Positions 3,545 through 54,844 of a DNA stretch of 64,000 nt are shown piece by piece. Origin of the DNA: Deltaproteobacteria bacterium (GTDB lineage Bacteria > Myxococcota_A > Polyangia > JAAYKL01); NCBI GenBank assembly GCA_028713995.1, contig JAQTNF010000007.1, positions 1,740-65,739 on the forward strand, given 5' to 3'. The notes below the pieces were generated by a model. It made no database searches, was not told the DNA's origin, and saw only the letters and a list, made by a program, of their open reading frames with translations. Position 1 is the stretch's first letter; each line of letters opens with the position of its first letter. The translations under genes and the position numbers were made by a program.

Positions 3545-5030
3545 ATATGATCTCATCAAACCCCAACAAATCAAAGTTATGCAATTGGAGCACCTTTCTT
3601 ATTGCGCTTATTGCAATATGGGTTGTGATAACATTAATACAGATATCTAAAATCCATGCTGGATACTCGCCCGTGCTGTCCGATGAATTTGGATATTACC
3701 TGAATTCACTCGGTTTTGTAGAAACAAACAGCATTTCAGCGGCATTTACCCTTGGCCCGGCGGGCTCGCCCCTTCTTGGATGCGATGCACATGGATGCAT
3801 GTATCCTCTGTTGCATTACGGCATTGCAAAGATTTTCGGATGGCATAGTCGGTCGTTCATATATTTGAATATGGCATATATTATCGCAATGGCATTTATG
3901 ATATGGAGAATCAGGTTTTTAGATACAACGAAGAAGCTTTTGCTCGCGGTCGGCATTCTCTATTTCCCATTCTACTATCTATATTCATTTTCATACATGC
4001 AGGAATGCATGCACGCATTTATTGCCTTCACGTTGGGCTACCTCTTGATTCTGTTTTCGAGAAACACCATCAATTTATCACCATTTTATGCCTACACCAT
4101 TATCCTGTTCTTTGTCGGCTTATTCCGTCCACTGTGGTACTTCTGGATATGTGGGTTTGTCCCGTTTGTGTCAATCGCCAAGGTGCGACATACCTTGTTT
4201 TACGTAGTACCGGCGTACATGGCTTTCATGTTGTTCGTGACCACCTCGTTCTTCGAGCCCATTCCCAATTTTTTTTCCACAGTTACTAACGCATTATGCG
4301 CAGGACATGTGCTCGAGGCCATGCGGCTGTTATCTCTACACACGATGTCCAACGTTGTTAGTTATTTCTCATTCGGATTCAGTCTTATTGTATCGTGGTC
4401 GATCATCTATCTGTTTATCAACTTCAGTATTGTATTTTTTCTTATCGTCTGGATATGGCAAGCGGCAAGGACGAGGCAAAGCATATACATATCTCTGGCG
4501 ATAATTAATTTCATAAATTTGGCGCTACTGTTCGTCATGTACGATGCATTCGACTGGAGAGACATAAGAACAATGTCGCCGCTCATGTATTTCAATATTG
4601 TATTCATAGTGACATCGTTGCCTCGTATAAGATATGCGTATGTCATGCTCCTGATACCCACATTCATCATTAGCTACGCAATGTCGAACGACAGGATAGC
4701 GGAGAGGGACAAACCGGAGGGAACGGTTCTGGAAATGGATGGTATCAAGAAGGAGCTTTCGGGAATACTCGAAAAACCGGTCGTCTACCTTGAATCTATT
4801 CCGCCCGATTTTACGCCATGGTTTCTCGCATTTCCTCTGAAGAACGACAGTGGAATGAAAATGCACTATATTGCTCCATACTATAAGGGCATTCCGATGG
4901 CCGGCGATATTCACTATATATTTACAACGAACAAGCACCCGCGAAAGAGATTGATATGGCAACGTGATAAATACAAACTGTACGAGAACCCAATTGGGAT
5001 TGGGAATCGAATGCTCCTTCAACCCTGAAG
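3545..5030. other. Low-GC (~40%) cassette in a ~70% GC context (putative horizontally acquired DNA)
   Basis: Abrupt composition switch at both ends. The segment equals one ORF (3547..5028). No integrase or transposase is visible. Confidence 0.7.
3547..5028 (+). CDS. Polytopic membrane GT-C-fold glycosyltransferase (PMT/ArnT-like), encoded in low-GC DNA
   Basis: About 40% GC against ~70% flanks. 10-12 predicted TM helices. First extracytoplasmic loop carries a DE motif (LSDEFGYY) right after TM1, as in GT39/GT83 enzymes. Soluble C-terminal ~110 aa. The ORF fills the AT-rich segment exactly. Confidence 0.6.
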   Translation: MISSNPNKSKLCNWSTFLIALIAIWVVITLIQISKIHAGYSPVLSDEFGYYLNSLGFVETNSISAAFTLGPAGSPLLGCDAHGCMYPLLHYGIAKIFGWHSRSFIYLNMAYIIAMAFMIWRIRFLDTTKKLLLAVGILYFPFYYLYSFSYMQECMHAFIAFTLGYLLILFSRNTINLSPFYAYTIILFFVGLFRPLWYFWICGFVPFVSIAKVRHTLFYVVPAYMAFMLFVTTSFFEPIPNFFSTVTNALCAGHVLEAMRLLSLHTMSNVVSYFSFGFSLIVSWSIIYLFINFSIVFFLIVWIWQAARTRQSIYISLAIINFINLALLFVMYDAFDWRDIRTMSPLMYFNIVFIVTSLPRIRYAYVMLLIPTFIISYAMSNDRIAERDKPEGTVLEMDGIKKELSGILEKPVVYLESIPPDFTPWFLAFPLKNDSGMKMHYIAPYYKGIPMAGDIHYIFTTNKHPRKRLIWQRDKYKLYENPIGIGNRMLLQP

Positions 5031-28836: not shown

Positions 28837-30150
28837 ATGCATAAGATAGACGGGATACTGTGGCTCGGAGCGTTCCTCGGCGTGCTCGTGCTCGCGGGCT
28901 GCGGGGACGAGAGCACCACGGGTGGCAACATCGGCGATGATACGAGCGGGGACTCGGACGCGGACACGGATGGTGACACGGACAGCGACGCGGACACGGA
29001 TGGTGACACGGACGGCGACACGGACACGGATGGTGACACGGACGGCGACAGCGACGCGGATTCCGATGCGGACACAGACACCGACACCGAGACGCAATGC
29101 GTGGACAACGACAACGACGGATGGTGCTCCAGCCTCGACTGCTCGGACACGGACTCCGCGGTCAACCCGGACGCCGACGAGATCCCGAACAACGGGATCG
29201 ACGAAGACTGCGACGGCGTGACAGACGAGGTCGACACCGGACCGATTGAGGACACCGACACCGAGACCGGGCCCATCGAGCAGGACTGCTCGGGGTGCGT
29301 GGGCGTGGGCAACACGCTCGACAACATGCTGTGCGCCATCGACCTGTGCGACTCGAGCACCGTGCTCGGCAACACCTACGCCTCGCCGACCGGCTCGAAC
29401 ACGACGGGAACCTATGCCGCGGTGGCCCGGTTCGGCGACGCCACCAACGATCTGGCGCCCAAGCTCAACGGATCGTACGCGCTCATGGCGAGCGGCACGG
29501 CCACGGGCACAATCCACACCATGCCCATGGGCGGCAACTCAAAGACCGATCCGTTTTCCAAGAACAAGTTCCAGGAGATCTACGACGTGATGGAGTGGAA
29601 GCTGCGGCTCAAGGCGCCCCCGGGCGCCGCCGGATTCAAGGTCAACTACGTGTTCTTCTCCGAGGAATACGACGAGTATGTGGGGTCGCAGTACAATGAT
29701 AAATTCTACATCTTCATCGAGGCGCCGAGCACCAACAACGGCAAGCGCACGGTGATCAACTTCACCAATTGCCGCAACCCGGCCAAGTACAAGGACTTCG
29801 TGTGCGACGGGGCCACGATGGACTACTGCGTGGACGGCCAGTACTACTGCTACATCGCCATCAACACGGCGCTCTCGGAGTGCTGCTGGTACGGCGGATG
29901 CCCCAAGGGCAAGTGGACCACGGACGTCGCCGGGACGGGCTATTCGTGCGCCGCGAACCAGATGATGGACAGCTCGAACACGGGATCGTCCACGGGCTGG
30001 CTCGCGACCGAGTGGGCCGTGCAGCCGGGCGAGGAGTTCAATCTCATCTTCCACGTCCACGACACGTCGGATGAGATCCTGGATTCCGAGGTCATCCTCG
30101 ACTCCTTCCAGTTCATGGGCAAGGTCACGCCCGGCACGCATCCGGATTGA
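28837..30150 (+). CDS. Secreted lipoprotein: poly-acidic DTD repeat linker, MopE-like putative metal-binding cysteine motif, C-terminal choice-of-anchor-L-like domain
   Basis: RBS AAGGAG. Lipobox VLAGC|GDE. About 60 aa of D-T/S/G/A-D repeats. DNDNDGWCSSLDCSDTD...EDCDGVTDE motif. The C-domain segment FKVNYVFFSEEYDEYVGSQYNDKFYIF resembles choice-of-anchor L. Confidence 0.7.
   Translation: MHKIDGILWLGAFLGVLVLAGCGDESTTGGNIGDDTSGDSDADTDGDTDSDADTDGDTDGDTDTDGDTDGDSDADSDADTDTDTETQCVDNDNDGWCSSLDCSDTDSAVNPDADEIPNNGIDEDCDGVTDEVDTGPIEDTDTETGPIEQDCSGCVGVGNTLDNMLCAIDLCDSSTVLGNTYASPTGSNTTGTYAAVARFGDATNDLAPKLNGSYALMASGTATGTIHTMPMGGNSKTDPFSKNKFQEIYDVMEWKLRLKAPPGAAGFKVNYVFFSEEYDEYVGSQYNDKFYIFIEAPSTNNGKRTVINFTNCRNPAKYKDFVCDGATMDYCVDGQYYCYIAINTALSECCWYGGCPKGKWTTDVAGTGYSCAANQMMDSSNTGSSTGWLATEWAVQPGEEFNLIFHVHDTSDEILDSEVILDSFQFMGKVTPGTHPD
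28945..29098. repeat. Tandem GAC-ACG-GAY(-GGY) codon repeat encoding a poly-acidic linker
   Basis: Unit gacacggatggtgacacggacggc is repeated. Confidence 0.8.
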
Positions 30151-31751: not shown

Positions 31752-31776
31752 AGGTCCGAGCCGTTTCGCGGAAGGA

Positions 31777-32184
31777 TCATTCGCCGTCCGTGTCGGGGAG
31801 GCAGATGAGGCAGGGCCACATCTTGGCATAGACGCCGGTCTCGCAGCAGACACGGTTGCCGTTGCACATCATGTCGTCGTGCACGGTTCCCTTCTGCTGG
31901 TCGCAGGCGGGTTGCGACATGCACTCGAATTGGCACTCGGCGGGCCCGGTGTCGCTGTCGCCGTCGGAGTCCGAATCGCCGTCCGAGTCCGAGTCGCCGT
32001 CCGAGTCCGAATCACCGTCGGAGTCCGAACCGCTGTCGGCAGCTGTTTCCGTGCCGGTATCTGTCTCTTCCCCGGTGTCCGTTCCCCCGGCATCCGTGTT
32101 CAATGAGGGGGGGTTGCTGTTGCAAGCAACGATCAGGATTCCCAGAAAACTAACCAGAGCGCAAAAGAACATACCGTGCTTCAT
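31777..32184 (-). CDS. Small secreted lipoprotein with SDSDGD repeat linker and C-terminal Cys-rich knot
   Basis: RBS AAGGAG. Lipobox LIVAC|NS. (SDSDGD)x5. 10 Cys in the last 50 aa. Confidence 0.7.
   Translation of the reverse strand: MKHGMFFCALVSFLGILIVACNSNPPSLNTDAGGTDTGEETDTGTETAADSGSDSDGDSDSDGDSDSDGDSDSDGDSDTGPAECQFECMSQPACDQQKGTVHDDMMCNGNRVCCETGVYAKMWPCLICLPDTDGE
31951..32040. repeat. Tandem 18-nt repeat (gtcgccgtccgagtccga)n encoding (SDSDGD)n
   Basis: Five near-identical units. Confidence 0.8.
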
Positions 32185-32329
32185 GTCGGTGCTCCTTAAG
32201 CTTCGCCGCGGCCATGCATGCCGGACGACGACTCCGCTATCGGTTTTGGAGTGGTCCCATCCGCTTCGCTCGGCTCACGAAAATGCCGTTCGCGGCATGA
32301 CGAGGCGCGGGTGATGCCGCGGGACCGCC

Positions 32330-32521
32330 CTACTGTTGCCTGGGGGGCCCCGCGGTGGTTCCGGCCGAAGGGGGCTCCGATTCAAGAGTCGGCTTCCGGA
32401 CGTCCTCTTCAAGGGGGGCATTCTGCTGTTTTTGCGCCTTGCGTTGCTGCTTCTCGTCTCTCTTTCGCTGCTTCGCCATATCCTTCTGGCGTTTCTCAAA
32501 CTTGTAGTTGACCTTCGCCAT
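32330..32521 (-). CDS. Small highly basic Lys/Arg/Gln-rich protein (63 aa)
   Basis: RBS GAAGGGAAGG. MAKVNYKFEKRQKDMAKQRKRDEKQQRKAQKQQ. Divergent from the RRM protein gene. Confidence 0.4.
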   Translation of the reverse strand: MAKVNYKFEKRQKDMAKQRKRDEKQQRKAQKQQNAPLEEDVRKPTLESEPPSAGTTAGPPRQQ

Positions 32522-32734
32522 GCGCCTTCCCTTCTGTTCGGTTGTTCCACGCAGGAACGTATCACGGGGATGGAGCGGAAAGAAAAAACCCTTTCTTGTG
32601 GCTAATCTTCGCAAAGAGGTCTATTCTTTTCCAGAATTCGCCCGGGTGTTCCAGGCGGAACGAAGAACCGGCGCGATCCTTTCCGAGCATTCGCTGCGGT
32701 TCCACTCCACGCTCGGAAGAGGAAACGAAACACA

Positions 32735-33031
32735 ATGAAAATCTACGTCGGCAACATCCCATTCAGCATGGATGAAGGCGGGCTTCGCAAGCTCTTCGCG
32801 GAATTCGGCGAGGTCGACACGGTCAACGTGGTCACGGATCGCGAGAGCGGACGTCCTCGCGGATTCGCCTTCGTCGAGATGCAGGACGGGGATGCGCGCA
32901 AGGCCATCGGCGGGCTCAACGAGCGCGAGGTGGACGGTCGTCGGCTGAACGTGAACGAGGCCCGTCCCCGCGAAAATCGTGGTGGTGGTGGTGGCGGCGG
33001 CGGCGGCGGCGGCCGGCGCGGCGGTTGGTGA
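32735..33031 (+). CDS. RNA-binding protein, single RRM with glycine-rich tail
   Basis: RNP-2 IYVGNI and RNP-1 RGFAFVEM. C-terminal GGGGGGGGGGGRRGGW. Confidence 0.85.
   Translation: MKIYVGNIPFSMDEGGLRKLFAEFGEVDTVNVVTDRESGRPRGFAFVEMQDGDARKAIGGLNEREVDGRRLNVNEARPRENRGGGGGGGGGGGRRGGW
32978..33030. repeat. GGY trinucleotide microsatellite (ggtggt...ggcggc...) encoding the poly-Gly tail
   Basis: cgtggtggtggtggtggcggcggcggcggcggcggc. Confidence 0.8.
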
Positions 33032-33286
33032 GCCTCCCTTCACCCGCGGCGGAAGGAATCGGCATCGAAGCGAAGACGCCGGACGCACCGTCCCGCCACA
33101 AGCGGCCGGAGCCTCACCCGGCGCGTTCGGGAACGGTTCGATGCCTCGGTTGCGGCGGATCTTTCCTGTCGTGGGATCGCACTCGCAACCGCCTGTGCGC
33201 GTCCTGCGCGAAACGTAGATAAGAACGATATCCGATCGCCCGTTCGGCCTGTGGATCGGCCGGCATCGAAGTGTTATGGCAGGTCC

Positions 33287-33940
33287 ATGAGGCATTGGGT
33301 CGTGATCCTCGCGGCATCCGTCGCCCTGCATGGGCTTCTCTTTATCGCGCTCTTCCCGCCCGCGCCCCGGACCTCGAACGAAGCGCGGCCGCACGCCGAG
33401 GCCGAGCTCCTCATCGCCCCGAAAGCGACGCCAGGTCCGGCTTTGCCCGCGGCCGCCCCGCTTCGCGCGACATCGGCGAGACCGCGTCCGAAGCGCGTCA
33501 CGTCCGCGCAGTCGGCCATTTCGGAGATCGCAGTGGAGACCGGCCCGATCGCGGGCCCGACTCAGTCCGCTTCCAGGGCGATCGAGCTCGCAGGCGCCCT
33601 GGGCCCGGCAGTACCGGACTCATCCGCCGCGGTTTCCGATCCCGTGCCGCCCGCGGCCGTTCCTGCTCCCGACTACAGGCGCATCGCTTCCGACTGCTCG
33701 AGGCGCATCGAGAGCGTGCTGCGCTATCCGGCGCTCGCGAGGCGCGGCCGCATCGAGGGCACGGCCACGGTGCGCTTCCTGGTCGACGGGAGCGGGACCC
33801 CGCGGCGTCCCGACCTGGTGTCATCTTCGGGCCACCGCCTTCTCGACGAGGAGGCGCTCGCCGCGGTCGTGCGCGCCGCGCCTTTCCCCTCCTGCGACAG
33901 ACCCCTGGTCGTGCCCGTGGTGTTCGCGCTGAAACGGTAG
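33287..33940 (+). CDS. TonB-family energy transducer (C-terminal TonB domain)
   Basis: N-terminal TM (WVVILAASVALHGLLFIALF). Pro/Ala-rich spacer. C-terminal YPALARRGRIEGTATVRFLVDGSG TonB-C motif. Confidence 0.7.
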   Translation: MRHWVVILAASVALHGLLFIALFPPAPRTSNEARPHAEAELLIAPKATPGPALPAAAPLRATSARPRPKRVTSAQSAISEIAVETGPIAGPTQSASRAIELAGALGPAVPDSSAAVSDPVPPAAVPAPDYRRIASDCSRRIESVLRYPALARRGRIEGTATVRFLVDGSGTPRRPDLVSSSGHRLLDEEALAAVVRAAPFPSCDRPLVVPVVFALKR

Positions 33941-34052
33941 GCGCGCAAGGGTGCGTCCCTTTGCCCGAACCGGCCGAGAAAATCGTGGCGTATTCGGGCG
34001 CCGTGCGTAAGAATCGACTCGTAATGCCATGAGACACCGTTGGGAGGCGCCC

Positions 34053-37000
34053 ATGTGCCAGGTTCGCGTCATGCTCGGATTGTCCGGTCCGCTGCTTTCG
34101 CTCTCGCTCCTCGGCCTCGCCGGATGCGACCGCGGCCGTGACGGGCACGCGCCCCGCGCCTCGGCGCCCAAACCCGTGCCAGCGACGACCCGCCAGACGC
34201 CGAAGAACTCGAACCGGTGGCTCAACGACGTGCAGGAGCGCATCGCGAACGAGGAGTATCGCGTCGCGCGGCAGGACGATTGGAGCTTCGCCGCCGCGAA
34301 CCGGGCGCACAATCTGCGCGCGCGGTTCCGGGACGGCGCTGCGCGCATCGAGCCGCGCGAGAGCGTGGCCGGCCAGGGACACTGGGCTGCGACGCTCGCG
34401 GTGACCGGGTTCGGCCGCGAGGGCGCCGTGCTGGACGTGGATCGCGGCGAGGCGCGCTCCGGGGCGTGCGACGACAAGGCAGGGCCGGGCGCCACGGATG
34501 AGTGTTTGAAGCGGTTGGAGATCGTTCGGGACGGGCTCGTCGAGTGGTGGGGCAACTGGGTCGACGGGATGGAACAGGGGTTCGACGTGGCCGAGCGGCC
34601 CGAGGGCGTGGGCGAGCTCGCGATCCGCGTGGAGGTCGAGGGGCTCGAGGCCAAGCAGGACGGCCCGACCGGCGCGCTGCTGCGCCAGAACGGCGAGCTG
34701 CGCTTGGCTTACTCGGGCCTGTCTGCCAAGGACTCGGCCGGCAAGGCGCTGCCCGCGCGCATGGCCGTCGGGGCGGACTCGATCCTGTTCTTTGTCGACG
34801 ACGATGACGCAACATACCCCGTCGTCATCGATCCGCTCCTCACCTCGCCCGCCTGGACCGCGGAGAGCGACCAGGCAGGCGCCCAGTTCGGGTATTCGGT
34901 CGCGTCCGCGGGTGACGTGAACGGCGATGGGTTCAGCGATGTCATCATCGGGGCGCCATACTACGACGGCCTGACAGACGAGGGCGCAGCATTCGTGTTC
35001 CATGGATCATCATCTGGCCTTTCGACCTCGGCCAACTGGACCGTGAAGGGCGGACAGGCGAGTGCGCTTTTCGGCAACTCCGTCGCTTCGGCAGGAGATG
35101 TGAACGGCGACGGGTACGAAGACGTCATTGTTGGCGCTTATGCTTTTGACAACGGCCAGACCGACGAGGGCCGCGTCTTCGTCTACCACGGCTCGTCCAC
35201 CGGCCTCTCGACCACTCCAGCGTGGACCGCGGAGAGCGACCAGGCGAGCGCGGAATTCGGAATCTCGGTGTCGTCGGCCGGCGACGTGAATAGCGATGGA
35301 TATGCGGATGTCATCGTAGGCGCACACAAGTTCGCCAACGGCCAGGCCGCCGAAGGCCGAGCGTACGTGTATCACGGCTCGGCTTCCGGGCGGTCAGCGA
35401 CAGCCAACTGGACAGCGGAGGGTGATCAGATCGGCGCACACTTCGGCACCGCCGTCGCGTCGGCAGGAGACGTGAACGGCGACGGGTACACGGACGTCAT
35501 CATCGGCGCTCCTGACTATGACAAAGGAATCACGGATGAAGGCGCGGCATTCGTTTTCCACGGCTCGGCCTCGGGTCTTTCTTCCACATACTGGATCGCC
35601 GGAAGCATGCAGGCGAACTCCAACTACGGCGGCTCCGTCTCGTCCGCCGGAGATGCGAATGGCGACGGGTACGCGGATGTCATCGTCGGCGCTCGAAACT
35701 ACGACAACGGCCAGACCGACGAAGGCCGCGTCTTCTTCTACAAGGGTGGTCCGGACGGCCTCTCGCCGTCCGCGGATTGGACGAACGAGAGCAACCAGGC
35801 GAATTCCGGGTACGGGAAATCGGTCGCCGGGGCAGGGGATGTGAACGGAGACGGATACTCCGACTTCATCGTCAGCGCTCACCGATATGACAACGGCCAA
35901 ACGGACGAAGGTCGGGTTTTCGTGTACTACGGCTCCGCCAGCTCCTTCTCCTCCACCGGTGCCTGGACGGTGGAGAGCGACCAGGCGGAGGCGCTCTTGG
36001 GCAACTCGGTGTCTTCTGCCGGTGATGTCAACGGCGACGGCTACTACGACATCATCATCGGCTCATCCTACTACGACAACGGCCAGACCGACGAAGGCCG
36101 CGCCTACGTCTACTACGGTTCCGCCGCCGGCCTTGCGACGTCTTCCGGTTGGACCGCTGAGAGCAATCAGGCGAACGCGGTGTTCGGATATTCCGTCTCC
36201 TCGGCCGGTGACGTGAACGGCGACGGGTACGCCGACGTCATCGTCGGCGCCGACTATTACTCCAACGGCCAAACCGGTGAGGGGCGCGCCTACATCTATC
36301 ACGGCGCGGCGTCCGGTCTCTCCACCACCGCGGCCTGGAGCGACGAAGGCAACGAGGCCAACGCGCTCTTCGGAAAATCCGTATCCGCTGCCGGGGACGT
36401 GAATGGCGACGGCTACGGCGATGTCATCGTGGGTGCGCCTTCGTACGGCAACGGTCAATCCGGTGAAGGAAGAGCGTTCGTCTACCATGGATCGACCTCC
36501 GGTCTGTCGGCCACACCCGACTGGACAGCGGAGGGCGACCAAGTCAACGCATGGTTCGGCTTCTCCGTTGCCGCTGCAGGGGATGTGAATGGCGATGGGT
36601 ACGGCGATATCATCGTAGGCGCCAATCAATACGACAATGACCAAACCAACGAGGGCCGGGCGTTCGTGTTCCACGGTTCTGTTTCGGGACTATCGGCCGC
36701 TGCCGACTGGACCGCTGAGAGCGATCAGGCGGACGCGGAATTCGGTCGCTCCGTGGCGTCTGCCGGGGATGTGAACGGCGACGGCTACGGTGATGTCGTT
36801 GTAGGAGCACCCTACTACGACAACGGCCAGACCGACGAGGGCCGCGCATACGTCTATTATGGCTCCGCCACCGGGCTCGCGGCGACCGCGAACTGGATCA
36901 AGGAGAGCGATCAGCCGAACTACGCGTTGGGGTATTCCGTTTCCTCCGCCGGCGACGTGAACGGCGACGGATATGGGGATGTCATCGTCGGCGCCCCAAA

Positions 37001-40000
37001 TCCAACGGGGAATGGTAACAATAACGGCTTCGCATATGTTTTCTACGGCTCGGCCTCGGGGCTCGGAGTTGCGGCTGATTGGACCGCCAGTGTGAATCCT
37101 GTCAATTTCGGCATGTCGGTCGCTACTGCAGGAGATGTCAACGGCGACGGGTACAGCGATGTTGTCATCGGCTCGCCCCGTTACGGAAACGGCCAGACCC
37201 TCGAGGGCCGAGCGTACGTGTACCATGGCTCTGCCAGCGGATTGGCGACAACCGCCGGTTGGGGTGCCGAGAGCAACCAGGCGAGCGCCTCCTACGGCTG
37301 GTCCGTTGCATCCGCCGGGGACGTGAACGGGGACGGTTACTCGGATATCGTTATTGGTTCCTATATGTACGACAACGGCCAGTCGAACGAAGGCCGCGCG
37401 TTCCTCTACTACGGCAACGGCGGTGCGGGCCTCTCCGTTCGCCCCCGGCAGTTCAACGCCGACGGCGACCCGCAGATGCAGGCGTTCGCCAAGGCCGAGA
37501 CGGGCAACATCCAGATCCAGATACCGGCGCGCTCCGATCGCGGCCGCACCAAGGTCAAGCTCGAGTACGAGATCCAGCCGCACACGACGCCGTTCGATGG
37601 AACGGGGCTGCGGCGGTCGGCGAGTTGGACCGACACGGGCAACCCCGCGGACGGCGTGAACGATCTCACCGAGACCGTGAGCGGGCTTTCGGGAGGCGAC
37701 TACCACTGGCGCGCGCGGCTCGTCTACCACCCTTCCTCACCGGGCGGTGGCGAGCACTCGCGATGGATCGTGTACGACAGGATCGGCTCGTGGCAGCCGG
37801 ACTTCCGCATCTCGGTCGAGAAGAAGCCCGACGGCGAGACCTGCGGCGGCGCCGGCGAGTGCCTGAGCGGCAACTGCGTGGCGGGCACGTGCTGCTTCGA
37901 CCCGTGCGCGACGCCGCCGGATTGCAAGGTCCCGCCGGCCACCTGCCCGGGCGGCACGGCCTGCTCCTACGAGAACGCCGCGGACGCCACCCAATGCCTC
38001 GGCGGAGGCGGCCTGTGCAAGGGCGGCGAGTGCGTGACGAACGAGTGCTATCTCGGCGCGTGGTACGCGAGCGGCCAGCCCACGGAAGGCTGCAAGTTCT
38101 GCGACCCGGCCACGAGCCGGACCGCGTGGACCGACCGTCCCAACACGTACCCGGACTCCTGCGGCACGGCCGCCTGCCCGGCCGACGCCTGCTCCGGCGG
38201 AGCGTGGCTCGACTACGGCGCGTCCTGCCAGCTCACGTGCAACGGCTTCGGGATCTGCGGCTCGTCGTGCGCGTGCACGCCGGCCACGACCGCCTGCTCG
38301 GCCGCAGGCTGCTGCCAGTCCGCTTGCGCTCCGGCCACGGGCTGCTACACCACCGCCGGCTCGTGCGGCGGGACCGACACGTGCAACGCCAACGTGCTCA
38401 CGGTGGGAAACTCGTGCACCGGCTGCGCGCTGAACGGCGCCATCGGCGCATGCGCGGGCGGCGCGACCTACACATGCAACTCGAGCGTGCACCCCACGTG
38501 CGAGAGCCGCTCGTGCAATGGGGCCACGTACTATTGCACGAACGGGGGCGGCATCTGGCAGTGGCGCACGGGCACGGGCTGCGACGACGGGGCCCTGTGC
38601 ACGTACGGGGACGCGTGCGGCGGCGGGACGTGCAGCGGCACGGCGGTGAGCTGCACGGACACGGCGTGCGTGGACCGGACGTGCAACGGGACGAGCGCCT
38701 GCGCCGAGAGCTACATGAGCGGGTCGACCTCGTGCGGCGCCACGGCTTGTCCCGCGGACTCGTGCACCGGGCTGACGTGGCACAACTACGCAGCGACCTG
38801 CACGCGCTATTGCAACGGGTCGGGGAACTGCAACACCTGCTCCTGCGCGCCCGTCGACGTGACGTGCACGGCCGGCGGGTGCTGCCAGGCCGCATGCGAT
38901 GCCGCGACCGGGTGCTCGAGCGCAGCCGGATCCTGCGCGGACGTATGCGGCGCGACGACGCTCGAGGTGGCGCGCACCTGCTCGGGGTGCGGGGCGAACG
39001 GCGCCTCGGGCACATGTGCCGGCACGACGCACGCCTGCAGCGCGGGGAAGGCCTGCGCGCAGGTGACCTGCGGCGGAACGGCGTACACCTGCACGAACGA
39101 CGGCGGCACGTGGCAGTGGCGCGCGTCGGCCGCCTGCAACGACGGGAACGCCTGCACTTACAACGACACCTGCTCCGGGGGCGCGTGCCAGGGGCAGCCC
39201 ATCACGTGCACGTCGGACACGTGCATGACGCGGACGTGCAACGGCACCTCCACGTGCACCGAGAATGCGGCCATCCTCGGCACCCCCTGCGGGACCTCGG
39301 CATGCCAGGCGGACGCGTGCGACGGGCTTGTGTTCGAGAACTACCCGGCGACGTGCAACCGAACCTGCGATGGCGACGGCACGTGCCAGACGTGCACGTG
39401 TACGGCGACAACGACGAGCTGCGCGGCGGGGTCGGGCTGCTGCACGGCGATCTGCAACCCGACGACCGGGTGTGCAACCCAGCCGGGGACTTGTGGCGGG
39501 GGAGGGGACACGTGCGGCGCCGAGGTCCTGACCGTCGGACAGGTCTGCAACGGGTGCGGCTCAAATGGCGCGGAAGGGACTTGCGTCGCGGGCGGGACGT
39601 TCACGTGCAGCGACGCGGTGCACGACGAGTGCGAGCTCGCGAGCTGCGGCGGGAACCCGCTCTACTGCGTGGAGGACCTCATTGACGGCTGGGGCTGGAA
39701 CACGGATCCGGCCTGCGACGACGGCGACGCGTGCACCCACGACGACGCATGCGCGGGTGGCGCCTGTGCCGGGACGCCCATGGAGTGCGTGTCGGACGCC
39801 TGTAAAACGCGGGCCTGCAACGGCACATCCGAGTGCGACGAGCAGGACGTGGACGCGGGCACGCCGTGCGGCGCGGAAGACTGCCCCGCAGACTCGTGCG
39901 GCGGGACGACATGGAGCGACTACCCGGCCGCGTGCGAGCGGGCCTGCGACGGCGCTGGTGCGTGCGCGGGTTGCGAATGCCAGCCGATGACCGACGCGTG

Positions 40001-41777
40001 CTCGGCCTCGGGCTGCTGCCAACCCGTGTGCGTGAACGCGACCGGCTGCGCCACGGTTGCCGGGACCTGCGCGGACGCGTGCGGCGGCCCGGTGATGACC
40101 GTCGCGCGCACGTGCTCGGGGTGCGGCGCCGACGGCGCGGCCGGAGCGTGCTCGGGCGCGGACCACGCCTGCGACGCTCTCGTGGAGTGCGAGGCGCGCA
40201 GCTGCGGCGGGCACATGTATTATTGTACCAACGTCGGTGGAATCTGGTCGTGGCGCCAGGGCCTCGAGTGTGACGACGGCGAGCCGTGCACATACGGCGA
40301 CCGGTGCTCGGGCGACGTGTGCCAGGGGACGTCGATCACGTGTCAGTCGGACGCGTGCATGGCGCGCTCGTGCGACGGCACGGCCTCCTGCGCCGAGACT
40401 CCCAAGCCGGACACGACCTCGTGCGGGGAGCAGCCGTGCCCGACAGGCGGGTGCAGCAGCGGAAGCTGGGCCGCATACGACAAGACCTGCGACGTCAAGT
40501 GCGACGGGGCGGGATCGTGCGAGGCCACCTGCGACTGCGAGCCGGTCGAGGAGCAGACCTGCACGGCGTCCGGCTGCTGCGACGCCGCGTGCTCGAACGC
40601 GCTCGGGTGCTACACGGTGGCCGGCACGTGCTCCGGCACTGACACCTGCGCGGCAAACCTGCTCGTCATCGATCCGTCGTGCGCGGGCTGCGGCCCGAAC
40701 GGCGCGAACGGAACGTGCGGCCCGAGCGGCTCGTACGCGTGCACGGACGCGGATCACGCGGAGTGCGACGCCCGGACCTGCGGCGGCACTCTCTACTACT
40801 GCACCAACGCGGGAGGGACGTGGGCTTGGCGCGCCTCGGCAGCCTGCGTGGACGGCGACGATTGCACCTACGGCGACTCCTGCGGTGCCGGGGCCTGCGC
40901 CGGCGTCGCCCTGACCTGCGACGACGGCAACTGCCTCGACCGCTACTGCGACGGCTCGAGCACCTGCGGCGAGTCCGTGCTCGAAAACGGCGAGCCCTGC
41001 GACGACGGCAACCCCTTGACCGACGGCGACGAATGCATTGCGGGGGGCGTCTGCGCCGGCCTCGAGGCCGGAGGCTGCGATCTGCCGATCGAGGCGGCTT
41101 TGCTGCCGTTCGCGGAGAACGGCTCCACCACGGGTCGCTCAAGCCACGTGAACGACTACGGCGAGCTGTGCGGCGGCTACGTACAGCCGGCGTCCGACGT
41201 GGTGTACGAGGTTGACCTGCACGCTGGCGACGAGCTGCGGGTGACCGTCACTCCTGACGCCGGCTTCAATACCGCCATCCGTCTCATCGCGGCGTGCGCC
41301 GATGGTCTCGACTGCCTCGGGTCGCGCAACGCGGCGGGCGCTGGCGGGGAGGAGGTCCTCGACTACACGACCACCGGGGACGGGGCCGTGACGGTCGTCG
41401 TCGAGGGCGTAGGCACGGGCGCGAACGGCGACTACCACGTCGATATCCGGCTCCTCAACGAACCGATCGACGCGGGCGGAGACGGCGGCGACGCGGCGAC
41501 CGACACGGACACGGATTCCGATTCCGATTCCGATGCCGACGCGGATTCCGATGTCGATTCCGACACGGATGCGGACACGGACGCCGATTCCGACACGGAC
41601 GCGGACGCCGATACCGACGGCGATGCCGATACCGATACCGATACCGACACAGGCACCGACACTCACGTGGACACGGGCACCGGCACGGACGGGGACGGGG
41701 GCGGCGAAGGCACGGACTCACGCATGGGCGGGTCGACAGGGAGCCACGGTTGCGGCTGCTCCGTGATCGGGGCATAG
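34053..41777 (+). CDS. Giant (~2570 aa) secreted lipoprotein: 14 FG-GAP/integrin-alpha-type repeats, beta-sandwich domain, 5-6 tandem ~185-aa Myxococcus-type cysteine-rich repeats, poly-acidic DTD stretch, GCGC C-terminus
   Basis: RBS GGGAGG before MCQVRV. Lipobox LGLAGC|DRG. Repeats SAGDVNGDGYxDVIVGA...NGQTDEGRAYVYHGS with ~61 aa period. Repeats YYCTNxGGxWQWR..CDDGxxCTYxDxCxGGxC..RxCNGTSxC. Ends ...HGCGCSVIGA, like a MYXO-CTERM GCGC motif but without the following TM helix. Confidence 0.85.
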   Translation: MCQVRVMLGLSGPLLSLSLLGLAGCDRGRDGHAPRASAPKPVPATTRQTPKNSNRWLNDVQERIANEEYRVARQDDWSFAAANRAHNLRARFRDGAARIEPRESVAGQGHWAATLAVTGFGREGAVLDVDRGEARSGACDDKAGPGATDECLKRLEIVRDGLVEWWGNWVDGMEQGFDVAERPEGVGELAIRVEVEGLEAKQDGPTGALLRQNGELRLAYSGLSAKDSAGKALPARMAVGADSILFFVDDDDATYPVVIDPLLTSPAWTAESDQAGAQFGYSVASAGDVNGDGFSDVIIGAPYYDGLTDEGAAFVFHGSSSGLSTSANWTVKGGQASALFGNSVASAGDVNGDGYEDVIVGAYAFDNGQTDEGRVFVYHGSSTGLSTTPAWTAESDQASAEFGISVSSAGDVNSDGYADVIVGAHKFANGQAAEGRAYVYHGSASGRSATANWTAEGDQIGAHFGTAVASAGDVNGDGYTDVIIGAPDYDKGITDEGAAFVFHGSASGLSSTYWIAGSMQANSNYGGSVSSAGDANGDGYADVIVGARNYDNGQTDEGRVFFYKGGPDGLSPSADWTNESNQANSGYGKSVAGAGDVNGDGYSDFIVSAHRYDNGQTDEGRVFVYYGSASSFSSTGAWTVESDQAEALLGNSVSSAGDVNGDGYYDIIIGSSYYDNGQTDEGRAYVYYGSAAGLATSSGWTAESNQANAVFGYSVSSAGDVNGDGYADVIVGADYYSNGQTGEGRAYIYHGAASGLSTTAAWSDEGNEANALFGKSVSAAGDVNGDGYGDVIVGAPSYGNGQSGEGRAFVYHGSTSGLSATPDWTAEGDQVNAWFGFSVAAAGDVNGDGYGDIIVGANQYDNDQTNEGRAFVFHGSVSGLSAAADWTAESDQADAEFGRSVASAGDVNGDGYGDVVVGAPYYDNGQTDEGRAYVYYGSATGLAATANWIKESDQPNYALGYSVSSAGDVNGDGYGDVIVGAPNPTGNGNNNGFAYVFYGSASGLGVAADWTASVNPVNFGMSVATAGDVNGDGYSDVVIGSPRYGNGQTLEGRAYVYHGSASGLATTAGWGAESNQASASYGWSVASAGDVNGDGYSDIVIGSYMYDNGQSNEGRAFLYYGNGGAGLSVRPRQFNADGDPQMQAFAKAETGNIQIQIPARSDRGRTKVKLEYEIQPHTTPFDGTGLRRSASWTDTGNPADGVNDLTETVSGLSGGDYHWRARLVYHPSSPGGGEHSRWIVYDRIGSWQPDFRISVEKKPDGETCGGAGECLSGNCVAGTCCFDPCATPPDCKVPPATCPGGTACSYENAADATQCLGGGGLCKGGECVTNECYLGAWYASGQPTEGCKFCDPATSRTAWTDRPNTYPDSCGTAACPADACSGGAWLDYGASCQLTCNGFGICGSSCACTPATTACSAAGCCQSACAPATGCYTTAGSCGGTDTCNANVLTVGNSCTGCALNGAIGACAGGATYTCNSSVHPTCESRSCNGATYYCTNGGGIWQWRTGTGCDDGALCTYGDACGGGTCSGTAVSCTDTACVDRTCNGTSACAESYMSGSTSCGATACPADSCTGLTWHNYAATCTRYCNGSGNCNTCSCAPVDVTCTAGGCCQAACDAATGCSSAAGSCADVCGATTLEVARTCSGCGANGASGTCAGTTHACSAGKACAQVTCGGTAYTCTNDGGTWQWRASAACNDGNACTYNDTCSGGACQGQPITCTSDTCMTRTCNGTSTCTENAAILGTPCGTSACQADACDGLVFENYPATCNRTCDGDGTCQTCTCTATTTSCAAGSGCCTAICNPTTGCATQPGTCGGGGDTCGAEVLTVGQVCNGCGSNGAEGTCVAGGTFTCSDAVHDECELASCGGNPLYCVEDLIDGWGWNTDPACDDGDACTHDDACAGGACAGTPMECVSDACKTRACNGTSECDEQDVDAGTPCGAEDCPADSCGGTTWSDYPAACERACDGAGACAGCECQPMTDACSASGCCQPVCVNATGCATVAGTCADACGGPVMTVARTCSGCGADGAAGACSGADHACDALVECEARSCGGHMYYCTNVGGIWSWRQGLECDDGEPCTYGDRCSGDVCQGTSITCQSDACMARSCDGTASCAETPKPDTTSCGEQPCPTGGCSSGSWAAYDKTCDVKCDGAGSCEATCDCEPVEEQTCTASGCCDAACSNALGCYTVAGTCSGTDTCAANLLVIDPSCAGCGPNGANGTCGPSGSYACTDADHAECDARTCGGTLYYCTNAGGTWAWRASAACVDGDDCTYGDSCGAGACAGVALTCDDGNCLDRYCDGSSTCGESVLENGEPCDDGNPLTDGDECIAGGVCAGLEAGGCDLPIEAALLPFAENGSTTGRSSHVNDYGELCGGYVQPASDVVYEVDLHAGDELRVTVTPDAGFNTAIRLIAACADGLDCLGSRNAAGAGGEEVLDYTTTGDGAVTVVVEGVGTGANGDYHVDIRLLNEPIDAGGDGGDAATDTDTDSDSDSDADADSDVDSDTDADTDADSDTDADADTDGDADTDTDTDTGTDTHVDTGTGTDGDGGGEGTDSRMGGSTGSHGCGCSVIGA
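34850..37430. repeat. Array of 14 diverged ~183-bp tandem repeats (FG-GAP units) inside the giant CDS
   Basis: Recurring ...gccggngacgtgaacggcgacgggtac... every ~183 nt. Confidence 0.8.
38040..41000. repeat. Array of 5-6 diverged ~560-bp tandem repeats (Cys-rich module) inside the giant CDS
   Basis: The YYCTNxGGxWQWR anchor recurs at ~38530, 39085, 39665, 40225 and 40795. Confidence 0.75.
41497..41665. repeat. Tandem GAY-NCS-GAY repeat encoding a poly-acidic DTD/DSD stretch near the end of the giant gene
   Basis: gacacggacacggattccgattccgattccgatgccgac... Confidence 0.8.
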
Positions 41778-41793
41778 GAGAGGAGTGGGACGC

Positions 41794-42756
41794 ATGAGAA
41801 GCCAGCCAACCGTTGCCATCCTCGTCGCGGCCTGCCTCGCCCTATGGGCCGAGTCCGCGCGCGCCGGGACCGACGACGAGGCCAAGGCCCTGTTCCGGAG
41901 CGGAGTGGCCCTCTTCAAAGATGGCGACTACCGGGCCTCGGCCGAGGCGTTCGAAAAGGCTTACGCGCTCAAGCCCACGTACAAGCTGCTCTACAACATC
42001 GGGCAGGCCCGGGCCGCGGCGCACGAGTACGACCTGGCCATCTCGGCCTTCGAGCGCTATCTGGTGGACGGCGGCGACGAGCTCGACTCGGCGCGGCGCG
42101 ACGAGGTGCTCGCGGAGATCGCCAAGATGCGCCCGCTCGTGGGCTTCCTGGAGATCCGCGGGCCGGATGGGCTCACCCTCCTCGTGGACGGCCGCGAGCG
42201 CGGTCGGACGCCGTTGCAGGGCAAGCTCATGCTGACCGTGGGCAAGGCGCACCGCGTGGAGGTGCGCGACGGCGGCAAGCCCCTCATCATCAAGGACGTG
42301 CAGGTTTACGGCGGCACGATCGAGGTGGTGGAGGCGGCGCGGGAGGCCGGGCCGGAGCCGGAGTCCGCCCCCTTCGCGCAGCCTGCGAAGGAGCCCACCT
42401 CGCCTCCCACCAAGGCGCCCGAGCCGGCCGTCAACGACACACTGTGGGTCGCCGGATGGATCACTCTCGGGACCGGGGCCGCCGCGCTCGTCGCGGGCGG
42501 GGTCCTGGGCGGTCTGGCCCTGTCGCAGTCGGGTACGCTCGACGAGGTGTGCCCCGGCGGCGGCTGCTCGCCGAACCGGGAGGCCGAGGTGAAGGCCCTC
42601 GACTCCATGGCTCTCGGGGCCGACATCCTGCTCGGAGTCGGGGCGGCGGCGGCCGCGGCCGGGGTGGTGATGCTCCTGTGGCCGGCAAAGGAAGGCGAGA
42701 GCGCCGCGGCGGTGGTCCCCATGCCGGGAGGCGCGGCGGCCATGGTCGCCTTCTAG
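41794..42756 (+). CDS. TPR-like + PEGA-domain protein with C-terminal TM segments
   Basis: RBS GAGAGGAG. Signal peptide VAILVAACLALWAESARA. TPR-like helices. PEGA segment (GFLEIRGPDGLTLLVDGRERGRTPL). Gly/Ala-rich TM helices. Confidence 0.65.
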   Translation: MRSQPTVAILVAACLALWAESARAGTDDEAKALFRSGVALFKDGDYRASAEAFEKAYALKPTYKLLYNIGQARAAAHEYDLAISAFERYLVDGGDELDSARRDEVLAEIAKMRPLVGFLEIRGPDGLTLLVDGRERGRTPLQGKLMLTVGKAHRVEVRDGGKPLIIKDVQVYGGTIEVVEAAREAGPEPESAPFAQPAKEPTSPPTKAPEPAVNDTLWVAGWITLGTGAAALVAGGVLGGLALSQSGTLDEVCPGGGCSPNREAEVKALDSMALGADILLGVGAAAAAAGVVMLLWPAKEGESAAAVVPMPGGAAAMVAF

Positions 42757-53994: not shown

Positions 53995-54088
53995 TTTCCC
54001 GGTGGGCACAACAAGCCCAGGAACAATCCCTGACCGACGGTCCGCGATAAGATAGAATGAGATGTACGCGCAAAAGGAGGGACGACGC

Positions 54089-54844
54089 ATGAGGAGGCTC
54101 GTTTCGGTTCTGGTCGCGTTCGCGGCTCTGTCGGGAGCGGCGTTCGGGTGCGACGGCGGCAAGGGGGACGGCGCGCTCGCGTCATTCTCGGGCAGCGAGT
54201 GCAAGAAGGACGGGTACGAGGGACTGTTGATGCCCCTGCTCACTTTGCCGAGCAGCGGCGGCTACGACGGGTTGCAGTGCATCTCGTGGAAGCGCGCGGC
54301 GGACGGGACGCTCGAGGTCGACCTCGTCAACTTCCCTGGAGCGTGTGGGGCCCGGTACGAGGGCGAGGCCGCGCTCGAGAACGCCCACACGCTGCGGCTC
54401 GCGGCGCTGAACCCGAGCTGCGAGATCGCGTCGTGCGGATCGTGCATCTACGACTGGTCGTACGAGGTCGAGGGCGTGGCCGCGGACGCGGACTTGAAGC
54501 TCGTCATGGAGGAGAACGCGTGCCCCGACGGCGAGGAAGGCGCCAGGGTGGACGAGGCGACCATCCCCAAGGCGCGCCTGTCCGCGGGCATCATGTGCCG
54601 CTACGTGGACAGCGGGGTCATGGAATGGGTCGCGGGCTGCGGCGCGCTGCACCTGCCGTGCGGGACGGGCAGCGGCATGTGCCCGGAGGAGCCCGTGCCC
54701 TGCCAGGGCGACCTCGTGTGCAACGCCACGGGCGTGGGGAGCGACGAGGTGTGCATGCAGCCGTGCTCCACGTCGTCGCAATGCCCCCTGCCCGACGTGC
54801 TCACGTGCGACGGCGAGGTCTGCCGCCTCACCGAGACCTGGTAG
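54089..54844 (+). CDS. Cysteine-rich lipoprotein
   Basis: RBS AAAGGAGGG. Lipobox AAFGC|DGG. 24 Cys. Confidence 0.6.
   Translation: MRRLVSVLVAFAALSGAAFGCDGGKGDGALASFSGSECKKDGYEGLLMPLLTLPSSGGYDGLQCISWKRAADGTLEVDLVNFPGACGARYEGEAALENAHTLRLAALNPSCEIASCGSCIYDWSYEVEGVAADADLKLVMEENACPDGEEGARVDEATIPKARLSAGIMCRYVDSGVMEWVAGCGALHLPCGTGSGMCPEEPVPCQGDLVCNATGVGSDEVCMQPCSTSSQCPLPDVLTCDGEVCRLTETW

Follow-up and report, generated by a model that had tools for sequence, protein, structure and literature searches.

A conserved short cysteine tail related to the MYXO-CTERM signal apparently ends a giant FG-GAP lipoprotein of a Deltaproteobacteria bacterium

The window, which is the whole stretch of DNA analysed here, comprises 64,000 nucleotides (nt) of a Deltaproteobacteria bacterium (contig JAQTNF010000007.1, positions 1,740 to 65,739) and carries on its forward strand a 7.7-kb gene for a giant lipoprotein whose last nine residues are G-C-G-C-S-V-I-G-A. 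By comparison of sequences, this ending appears to be one case of a conserved, apparently undescribed short Cys tail that replaces the MYXO-CTERM sorting signal in related surface proteins of several lineages. The best explanation as a whole, to which a probability of about 0.6 is assigned, is that the gene is intact and encodes an adhesin-like surface lipoprotein, and that its tail is a conserved variant of MYXO-CTERM without the helix, in which the Cys is likely modified. The ending is very probably a conserved functional tail, being neither a truncation nor an artefact.

Three parts define MYXO-CTERM: a signature motif, generically GCGC, in which one Cys is invariant, followed by a transmembrane (TM) helix and then an Arg cluster (PMC11980579). 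The window protein ends in …GSHGCGCSVIGA-stop, with GCGC at residues 2566-2569, and only S-V-I-G-A follows the last Cys. It has the signature motif and a signal peptide, which is of the lipoprotein type, but neither the TM helix nor the Arg cluster, and since two of the three defining parts are absent it is not a MYXO-CTERM protein by definition; its tail is, on sequence, clearly related to that signal. An earlier note, made from the letters alone, had read a poly-acidic DTD tract before this end, a GCGC with no TM helix and basic tail behind it, and a next gene that starts 17 nt downstream with its own ribosome-binding site (RBS), and all three readings hold; its description passes over the PPC-like domain that separates the Cys array from the acidic tract. 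The elements that bear on the tail, with residues (aa) numbered from the ATG at 34053, are as follows:

34053..41777, + strand: whole gene, 2574 codons and a TAG stop at 41775-41777, a single and intact open reading frame (ORF)
41070..41486, + strand: C-terminal β-sandwich, aa 2340-2478, with a predicted PPC / collagenase collagen-binding-domain fold
41487..41747, + strand: acidic low-complexity spacer rich in D, T and S, aa ~2479-2550, 42% D+E
41748..41777, + strand: short Cys tail G-C-G-C-S-V-I-G-A and TAG, with the MYXO-CTERM signature motif and without TM helix or Arg cluster
41777..42756, + strand: RBS GGAGAGGAG and downstream gene (ATG 41794) for a protein with tetratricopeptide repeats (TPR) and TM segment, syntenic with the gene after the ortholog L011

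The hidden Markov model (HMM) of MYXO-CTERM, TIGR03901, which the earlier note had proposed as a check, gives no match to the window tail at E<=10 (cutoff 20 bits), and none of the models of NCBIfam release 20 recognises the short tails of the window protein and its relatives. Five genuine full MYXO-CTERM tails, used as a control, score 17-31 bits and give no score when cut about 7 residues past the CxC, so the TIGR03901 negative only restates the absence of the helix and Arg parts. A scan for frame extensions and indels over 41735-41780 found no downstream frame that gives a TM helix, an Arg cluster and a stop, and thus no hidden MYXO-CTERM. When a 1-nt deletion is simulated, the ORF fuses with the signal peptide of the next gene and its 320-aa TPR body. 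The gap between the stop of the giant gene and the downstream ATG 41794 is 16 nt, the RBS precedes that ATG, and the product of the downstream gene has its own signal peptide followed by TPR repeats.

The same ending is found in a syntenic ortholog, L011 (Ga0180429_10104467, GC content 0.69), which was detected by a metagenome scan with the C-terminal region of the window protein. Its C-terminal domain is 52% identical to that of the window protein (E 6e-55) and is followed by a (DT)n spacer, which is not alignable with that of the window, and by the end …GEYGCSCAVVGAR-TGA (…GCSCAVVGAR-stop). After 28 nt and GGAGG comes the ortholog of the window TPR gene (56% identity, E 1e-75). Since L011 shares the short ending and the synteny despite an unalignable spacer, the tail is conserved.

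When the C-terminal domain of the window protein was searched exhaustively with phmmer against 1.84 billion representatives, 545 matches were returned, and tails were classed among the 150 best of these relatives. The closest single-domain relatives (39-46% identity) have the same layout, which is a CDDG-type unit, the domain, an acidic spacer and a Cys tail. Three groups of tails are seen: full MYXO-CTERM signals (e.g. P0250, P0268, P0271, P0331); a Cys motif followed by a hydrophobic stretch without Arg (e.g. P0254, P0289); and, in 15 of the 150, a stop 4-5 residues past the last Cys, as in …GCGCTVVF, …GCGCSLLF, …GCSCSVVGF and …GCSCSMVSI. 'Intermediate' tails, in which the Cys motif precedes a partly hydrophobic stretch of 10-20 residues with no Arg cluster, stand after the same C-terminal domain and spacer in P0254, P0256, P0265, P0289, P0291, P0304, P0318, P0319 and P0332; they may represent stages of decay or yet another variant.

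Reference genomes scanned with one short-tail subgroup gave nine loci (GC 0.41-0.46), all nine with the short ending, whose record titles name uncultured Spirochaetales, Ca. Sumerlaeota, Bacteroidales or 'bacterium'; two of the short-tail reference genomes have two paralogs apiece. The 15 relatives and the nine loci follow the pattern G-C-[GS]-C-[STGAN]-[VLIM]-[VLI]-[F>G,I,W,L](x0-1). At loci L001-L010 the stop is TAA in 8 of 10 and TAG or TGA in the others, with stop-rich sequence after it in every frame, which excludes hidden extensions and recoding.

Besides the window protein and L011, at least 22 further proteins have the short tail after the same PPC-like domain and acidic spacer, and their MAGs are labelled Spirochaetales, Sumerlaeota or unclassified. 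The rule of the class is G-C-[GS]-C or a lone G-C, a small or polar residue, two aliphatic residues, and an end 4-6 residues past the last Cys. The consensus of 24 members reads G(-3) C(-2) [GS](-1) C(0) [STGAN](+1) [VLIM](+2) [VLI](+3) [F>G,I,W,L](+4), followed by the end or by one residue more, with F at +4 in 13 of the 24. The window tail, including its preceding PPC-like domain and acidic spacer, falls under the rule and fits the consensus through +3. A single Cys is present in 4 of the 24 members, which matches the MYXO-CTERM rule of one invariant and a second frequent Cys (10.1101/2023.06.07.544157). The pattern was absent from the other proteins retrieved, that is, from 119 other FG-GAP proteins and from 102 proteins of the Cys family. 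Upstream of the cassette, the short-tail proteins vary widely (MBG, cadherin, HYR and LTD domains), and their signal peptides are either of the lipoprotein or of the ordinary type.

The short and the full tails are also exchanged at the same position in proteins of the same architecture. P0247 has an N-terminal domain homologous to that of the window protein (36% identity, E 1e-29), a lipobox, FG-GAP-type repeats, the C-terminal domain, the spacer and a short tail, …ACGCTVLW, while P0268, a high-GC protein, has the homologous N-terminal domain (40% identity, E 6e-36), lipobox, FG-GAP repeats, C-terminal domain and spacer followed by a full MYXO-CTERM. N-domain, FG-GAP repeats, C-domain and spacer likewise precede a short tail in P0276 and a full signal in P0331 and P0250. 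This swap matches a typical attribute of sorting signals described by Haft, namely that in homologs of other lineages the position is taken by another signal or by none (10.1101/2023.06.07.544157).

L011, the further short-tail proteins, the homologs with full MYXO-CTERM and the lack of a rescuing frame therefore argue for a conserved short tag and not for a frameshift or a recent truncation. The earlier note had listed a tag that is novel and short, degraded, or frameshifted; the first of these possibilities is favoured by L011 and the 22 other proteins, and the last is contradicted by the frame scan. A full MYXO-CTERM at this position in homologs, which it had taken as a sign of a simple sequencing frameshift, gave a mixed picture, since the true ortholog L011 has the short tail and the more distant P0268 and P0250 have the full signal.

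An unlikely alternative is that the tail is vestigial: an ancestral MYXO-CTERM would have shed its TM helix and Arg cluster without harm, since the N-terminal lipobox already provides an anchor, and left a remnant with no function. The tail does correspond to the opening ~9 residues of canonical MYXO-CTERM tails (e.g. P0211, GCDCSVASSG…), the homolog of the same architecture P0268 has the full signal, the intermediate tails of P0254, P0289 and P0291 suggest a decay series, and the window protein has the lipobox. However, an unselected stump should not keep G-C-x-C-x-V-Φ-G-A in L011, in which the domain is 52% identical and the spacer cannot be aligned, nor would the convergence of 24 proteins of several lineages on one six-position pattern be expected, and many short-tail proteins have ordinary signal peptides that are not of the lipoprotein type.

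CXC motifs are redox-active mimics of protein disulfide isomerase. The terminal C-x-C could, with no sorting role, serve as a tethered motif for redox activity or metal binding, or form intermolecular disulfides with a partner, which is considered distinctly improbable. In its favour, the protein has 174 Cys and 2 more in the tail (those of the signal peptide and lipobox excluded), and the tail pair is 'extra' because the remaining 174 already form an even set; in addition, 26 lipoproteins of the Cys-repeat family end in C-x4-C-x-C(x0-2). This role would leave unexplained why aliphatic residues are conserved past the Cys and why its distance to the C-terminus is fixed, 4 of the 24 class members have a lone Cys, and the motif occupies the MYXO-CTERM position of homologs. 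An artefact, in which a sequencing frameshift, premature stop or misjoin removed a normal MYXO-CTERM, is suggested by the source, a metagenome-assembled genome (MAG), and is effectively refuted by the frame scan, in which a 1-nt deletion only fuses the ORF with the next gene, and by L011, an independent metagenome contig on which both the short ending and the downstream gene recur, the window gene lying moreover in the middle of its contig.

On the best explanation, the product would be an exported protein of ~2550 residues with an N-terminal lipid anchor that acts as an adhesin or receptor of the cell envelope. Its head would be formed by the N-terminal domain and 14 calcium-loop FG-GAP blades, and the propellers and the PPC-like module may bind ligands. 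The five 185-aa all-β disulfide-rich modules could form a long rigid stalk, by analogy with TraA (PMC3325183), and lead to a C-terminal cassette of a PPC/collagen-binding-type β-sandwich, a presumably disordered acidic spacer and the short Cys tail. The tail would keep the signature, which is one invariant Cys, usually in G-C-x-C, and the helix and Arg cluster would give way to 4-5 mostly aliphatic residues. The invariant Cys would be the site of modification or attachment, most likely by lipidation, and the residues past it may be trimmed, as CaaX is by Rce1 or MYXO-CTERM by an Rce1-like myxosortase. The outcome would be a second anchor point, or a mark for surface sorting, at the end of a flexible acidic tether.

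The MYXO-CTERM Cys is needed for cleavage by MrtX and is predicted to be lipidated, and the family to which MrtX belongs, CPBP/Rce1, has the short CaaX signal among its substrates (PMC11980579). Since the window tail copies the MYXO-CTERM signature and the family of MrtX processes CaaX, Cys lipidation with or without trimming is the most economical mechanism, although a lipidation or CaaX-like mechanism specifically is proposed only tentatively, by analogy. It is rather doubtful that G-C-[GS]-C-x-Φ-Φ-(x)-Φ-COOH is an undescribed multi-lineage class of extracytoplasmic TM-free C-terminal signals, a bacterial counterpart of CaaX, in which the Cys would be lipidated or attached and the end trimmed by a CPBP/Rce1-type protease, and which would be interchangeable with MYXO-CTERM.

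Several points weigh against a conserved tail with a modified Cys. In the model of MYXO-CTERM, the TM helix keeps the Cys at the inner membrane; a tail of 4-5 residues cannot span a membrane, and therefore the MYXO-CTERM mechanism cannot simply carry over. The window protein ends in G-A and not in the aromatic or large hydrophobic residue typical of the class; Gly at +4 occurs elsewhere only in L011 (G-A-R) and P0282 (G-F), and the Ala at +5 is common only to L011. Every short-tail example was found via the shared C-terminal domain, so that the tail is known as part of this cassette, and the organism labels of the MAGs are those of their depositors. No CPBP protease or recurrent partner was found beside the gene in the part of the window that was scanned or at L001-L010 (neighbour scans of L002, L003 and L006), and the CPBP family of the myxosortases was likewise not seen among the proteins encoded in that part of the 64-kb window. 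A second short-tail gene was not found within ±10 kb of P0306 (L001), and a profile search with alignment A2 in a set of 5.8 billion proteins gave nothing at E<=1e-8.

Like MYXO-CTERM (TIGR03901; Guo, Haft & Wall 2025, PMC11980579; Haft preprint, 10.1101/2023.06.07.544157), the window tail is C-terminal after a low-complexity spacer, has the G-C-G-C signature, occurs in large surface adhesin-like proteins with an N-terminal signal peptide and takes the position of the full signal of homologs; it differs in having 5 residues after the last Cys with no TM helix, Arg cluster or TIGR03901 score, and the short form is found also in MAGs labelled outside Myxococcota. The eukaryotic CaaX box also consists of a Cys and a few mainly aliphatic residues at the protein end, and the CPBP/Rce1 protease family is common to CaaX and MYXO-CTERM processing. 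In the window protein, however, the Cys is 5 residues from the end (usually 4 in the class) and not 3, the protein is exported and not cytosolic, and no prenyltransferase context is known for the tail. TraA of Myxococcus xanthus, which has a PA14 head, a TIGR04201 stalk and a MYXO-CTERM (PMC3325183), resembles the window protein as an exported receptor head on a rigid disulfide-rich tandem stalk with a disordered linker and a C-terminal Cys tag. The head of the window protein is FG-GAP and not PA14, its stalk is built of an unannotated 185-aa module unmatched by TIGR04201 and TIGR02232, it has an extra PPC-like domain, its signal peptide is of the lipoprotein type (type I in TraA) and its tag is short (tripartite in TraA).

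To our knowledge, the described prokaryotic C-terminal sorting signals are all tripartite (motif, TM helix and basic cluster), including the four Cys-containing ones of Rce1-like myxosortases. In the two myxosortase papers, these Cys signals are MYXO-, JDVT-, Synerg- and CGP-CTERM, all tripartite (PMC11980579; 10.1101/2023.06.07.544157). Literature searches, whose coverage was incomplete so that novelty is not proven, turned up no account of a TM-free Cys tail. A conserved Cys tail lacking the helix and basic cluster would bear on what recognises or modifies the MYXO-CTERM Cys and would bridge the long signals of MYXO-CTERM type and the short CaaX signal, a contrast in which the Haft preprint sees a sign of much left to discover (10.1101/2023.06.07.544157). 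Annotation pipelines based on HMMs miss the short-tail class entirely. If such a TM-free class of signals exists, no member of it had been recognised in a high-GC, Myxococcota-like genome before this gene.

The domain before the spacer, aa 2340-2478, is predicted to have the PPC / collagen-binding-type fold. Its model has a predicted local distance difference test (pLDDT) score of 90.6, and its top Foldseek matches are 5sv5, 2o8o and 1nqj (overall E 4e-6 to 1e-4), with E 4.2e-6 and TMt 0.75 for 5sv5 and TMt 0.72-0.79 for the collagen-binding domain of ColG, the TM scores being normalised to the target; the PPC domain of a Bacillus collagenase is also matched. It shares an eight-stranded β-sandwich with the PPC and clostridial collagenase collagen-binding domains but only 11-15% sequence identity, and in the window protein it is joined to the acidic spacer and the Cys tail in a fixed cassette. 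Pfam models, including the PPC HMM, have no match to aa 2340-2478 at E<=10. On the idea that GCGC is the displaced end of such a domain, a custom HMM of the domain that ends in C-x4-C-x-C aligns with window aa 2366-2467 over model positions 57-164 of 174, short of the end motif; GCGC lies ~95 aa further, past the spacer.

The regions that precede this domain are as follows:

34053..34127, + strand: lipoprotein signal peptide to the lipobox L-A-G-C (Cys25), read from the sequence, with processing presumed
34200..34847, + strand: N-terminal domain, aa ~50-265, without Pfam or NCBIfam family, common to P0247 (short tail) and P0268 (full MYXO-CTERM)
34848..37442, + strand: 14 FG-GAP repeats, with a DxNxDGxxD calcium-loop motif in each, presumably two 7-bladed propellers
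37443..38024, + strand: post-propeller region (aa ~1131-1255, no family match), then a first Cys-rich knot (aa ~1256-1324)
38025-38579, 38580-39134, 39135-39713, 39714-40268 and 40269-40844, + strand: five tandem Cys-rich units of 185-193 aa, an unannotated module, predicted all-β, with 30 conserved Cys
40845..41069, + strand: partial sixth unit, two CDDG-type sub-units of ~45 aa, the sole stretch with a TIGR02232 match, below threshold

The five full Cys units span aa 1325-2264 and the partial sixth aa 2265-2339, with CDDG-type cores at aa 1510, 1695, 1888, 2073 and 2265, which agrees with the five to six tandem repeats of ~185 aa counted in the earlier note. Its assignment of these repeats to the Myxococcus-type Cys modules is not supported: TIGR02232 (myxo_disulf_rpt) scores 18.7 bits against a cutoff of 20.8 bits, confined to aa ~2303-2329 of the partial unit, and the full 185-aa unit has no match in Pfam and NCBIfam at E<=10. 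NCBIfam scans of the whole protein and the units gave no match to TIGR04201 (TraA-type) either. A query of three units retrieved about 100 proteins, in which no Pfam domain covers the repeat and which come mostly from MAGs labelled Polyangia, Myxococcota or 'Deltaproteobacteria'. Each of units 2-5 has 30 Cys, and in an alignment of 34 units 30 Cys are invariant or near-invariant. The structure prediction that had been suggested for one module gave a confident all-β AlphaFold model (mean pLDDT 95.3), which has no neighbour in the PDB at E<=0.001 by Foldseek; profile searches against PDB sequences with the Cys unit and the C-terminal domain gave nothing below E 0.2. On this model, the 185-aa Cys unit is confidently a new all-β module without family annotation or a Foldseek neighbour among solved structures. 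The claim that the diverged repeats make the locus prone to recombination is weak, as the five units are 58-65% identical in DNA and their longest exact common word is 16 nt.

The first Cys unit has no CDDG sub-unit at 38025-38150 (aa 1325-1366) and opens with a C-x-L-G-A-W-Y…C-x-x-C-D-P…W-T motif, which is a separate small Cys module in P0147, P0177, P0186 and P0268. The 26 lipoproteins of the Cys-repeat family mentioned above (P0134, P0136-P0138, P0142, P0143, P0146, P0149, P0150, P0154-P0157, P0161-P0166, P0168-P0170, P0172-P0174 and P0176) end directly in a PPC-like domain and then in C-x4-C-x-C with 0-2 residues more (GCEC, SCGC, NCGCL…). This third form is shorter still: it has no spacer, and G-C-x-C stands at the extreme C-terminus. 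An acidic D[TS] spacer stands directly after the N-terminal lipobox in the Cys-repeat family (P0122-P0140) and directly before the C-terminal Cys tail in the window protein (aa 2479-2560), two tether arrangements that mirror each other.

At the N-terminus, the lipobox L-A-G-C occupies aa 22-25 behind a hydrophobic h-region and fits the rule [LVI][ASTVI][GAS]C, in agreement with the description of the ORF as a giant lipoprotein gene. A GGGAGG Shine-Dalgarno lies 5 nt 5' of the ATG at 34053; an alternative upstream ATG at 34029 gives a 2582-aa product and is the start used by NCBI in P0001, the entry for the identical protein ('MAG: integrin alpha [Deltaproteobacteria bacterium]', 2582 aa, 77-kb contig). 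The 14 FG-GAP repeats that had been noted earlier are recovered by Pfam PF01839 (14 stretches, 391 bits, cutoff 22.1, E 2.7e-120) and by a regular expression, which finds 14 D-[VA]-N-[GS]-D-G-[FY]-x-D loops with a period of ~62 aa; Tandem Repeats Finder (TRF) gives a 186-nt period with a 66% match. By their motif the loops are of calcium type, and the 14 blades are presumed to form two propellers of seven. This head is ordinary among the bacterial FG-GAP, integrin-alpha-like proteins (PF01839), which share such blades, number 4207 at E<=1e-10 and bear other C-terminal modules (T9SS, PKD, MYXO-CTERM). None of the best 120 covers more than 50% of the window protein, however, and the fusion of FG-GAP with a five-unit Cys array appears unique among the best matches in the database searched.

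Scans found no promoter or terminator 5' of the giant gene, and an Rfam scan of the whole window gave no match. Directly 5' of the gene lies a 2.3-kb ORF-poor gap (31752-34028, GC ~0.65), in which no promoter or terminator consensus was found; its ORFs 32621-33394(-) and 33271-34032(+) have no Pfam match, and a signal in one phase of third-codon-position GC (GC3) over 33250-33850 hints at an unannotated coding region.

Around the short-tail genes of other genomes some synteny is kept. At L003 (6759-7631(-)), L004 (4311-5186(-)) and L008 (3000-3869(-)), in low-GC MAGs of which two are labelled Spirochaetales, a convergent gene for a secreted protein of ~290 aa abuts the short-tail gene stop, and its copy in L003 matches PF01832 glucosaminidase; past it come an HflX-like GTPase and a conserved ORF of ~282 aa.

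Elsewhere in the window, 3547-5028 (+) encodes a 493-aa polytopic membrane protein rich in I, F and Y in an island of ~0.40 GC within the 0.68-GC window, and this gene was probably horizontally acquired. Two more secreted Cys-rich proteins are encoded at 28837-30150 (+) and 54056-54844 (+), of which one has a MopE-like putative metal-binding motif (PF11617) and the other, without a Pfam match, ends in …CDGEVCRLTETW.

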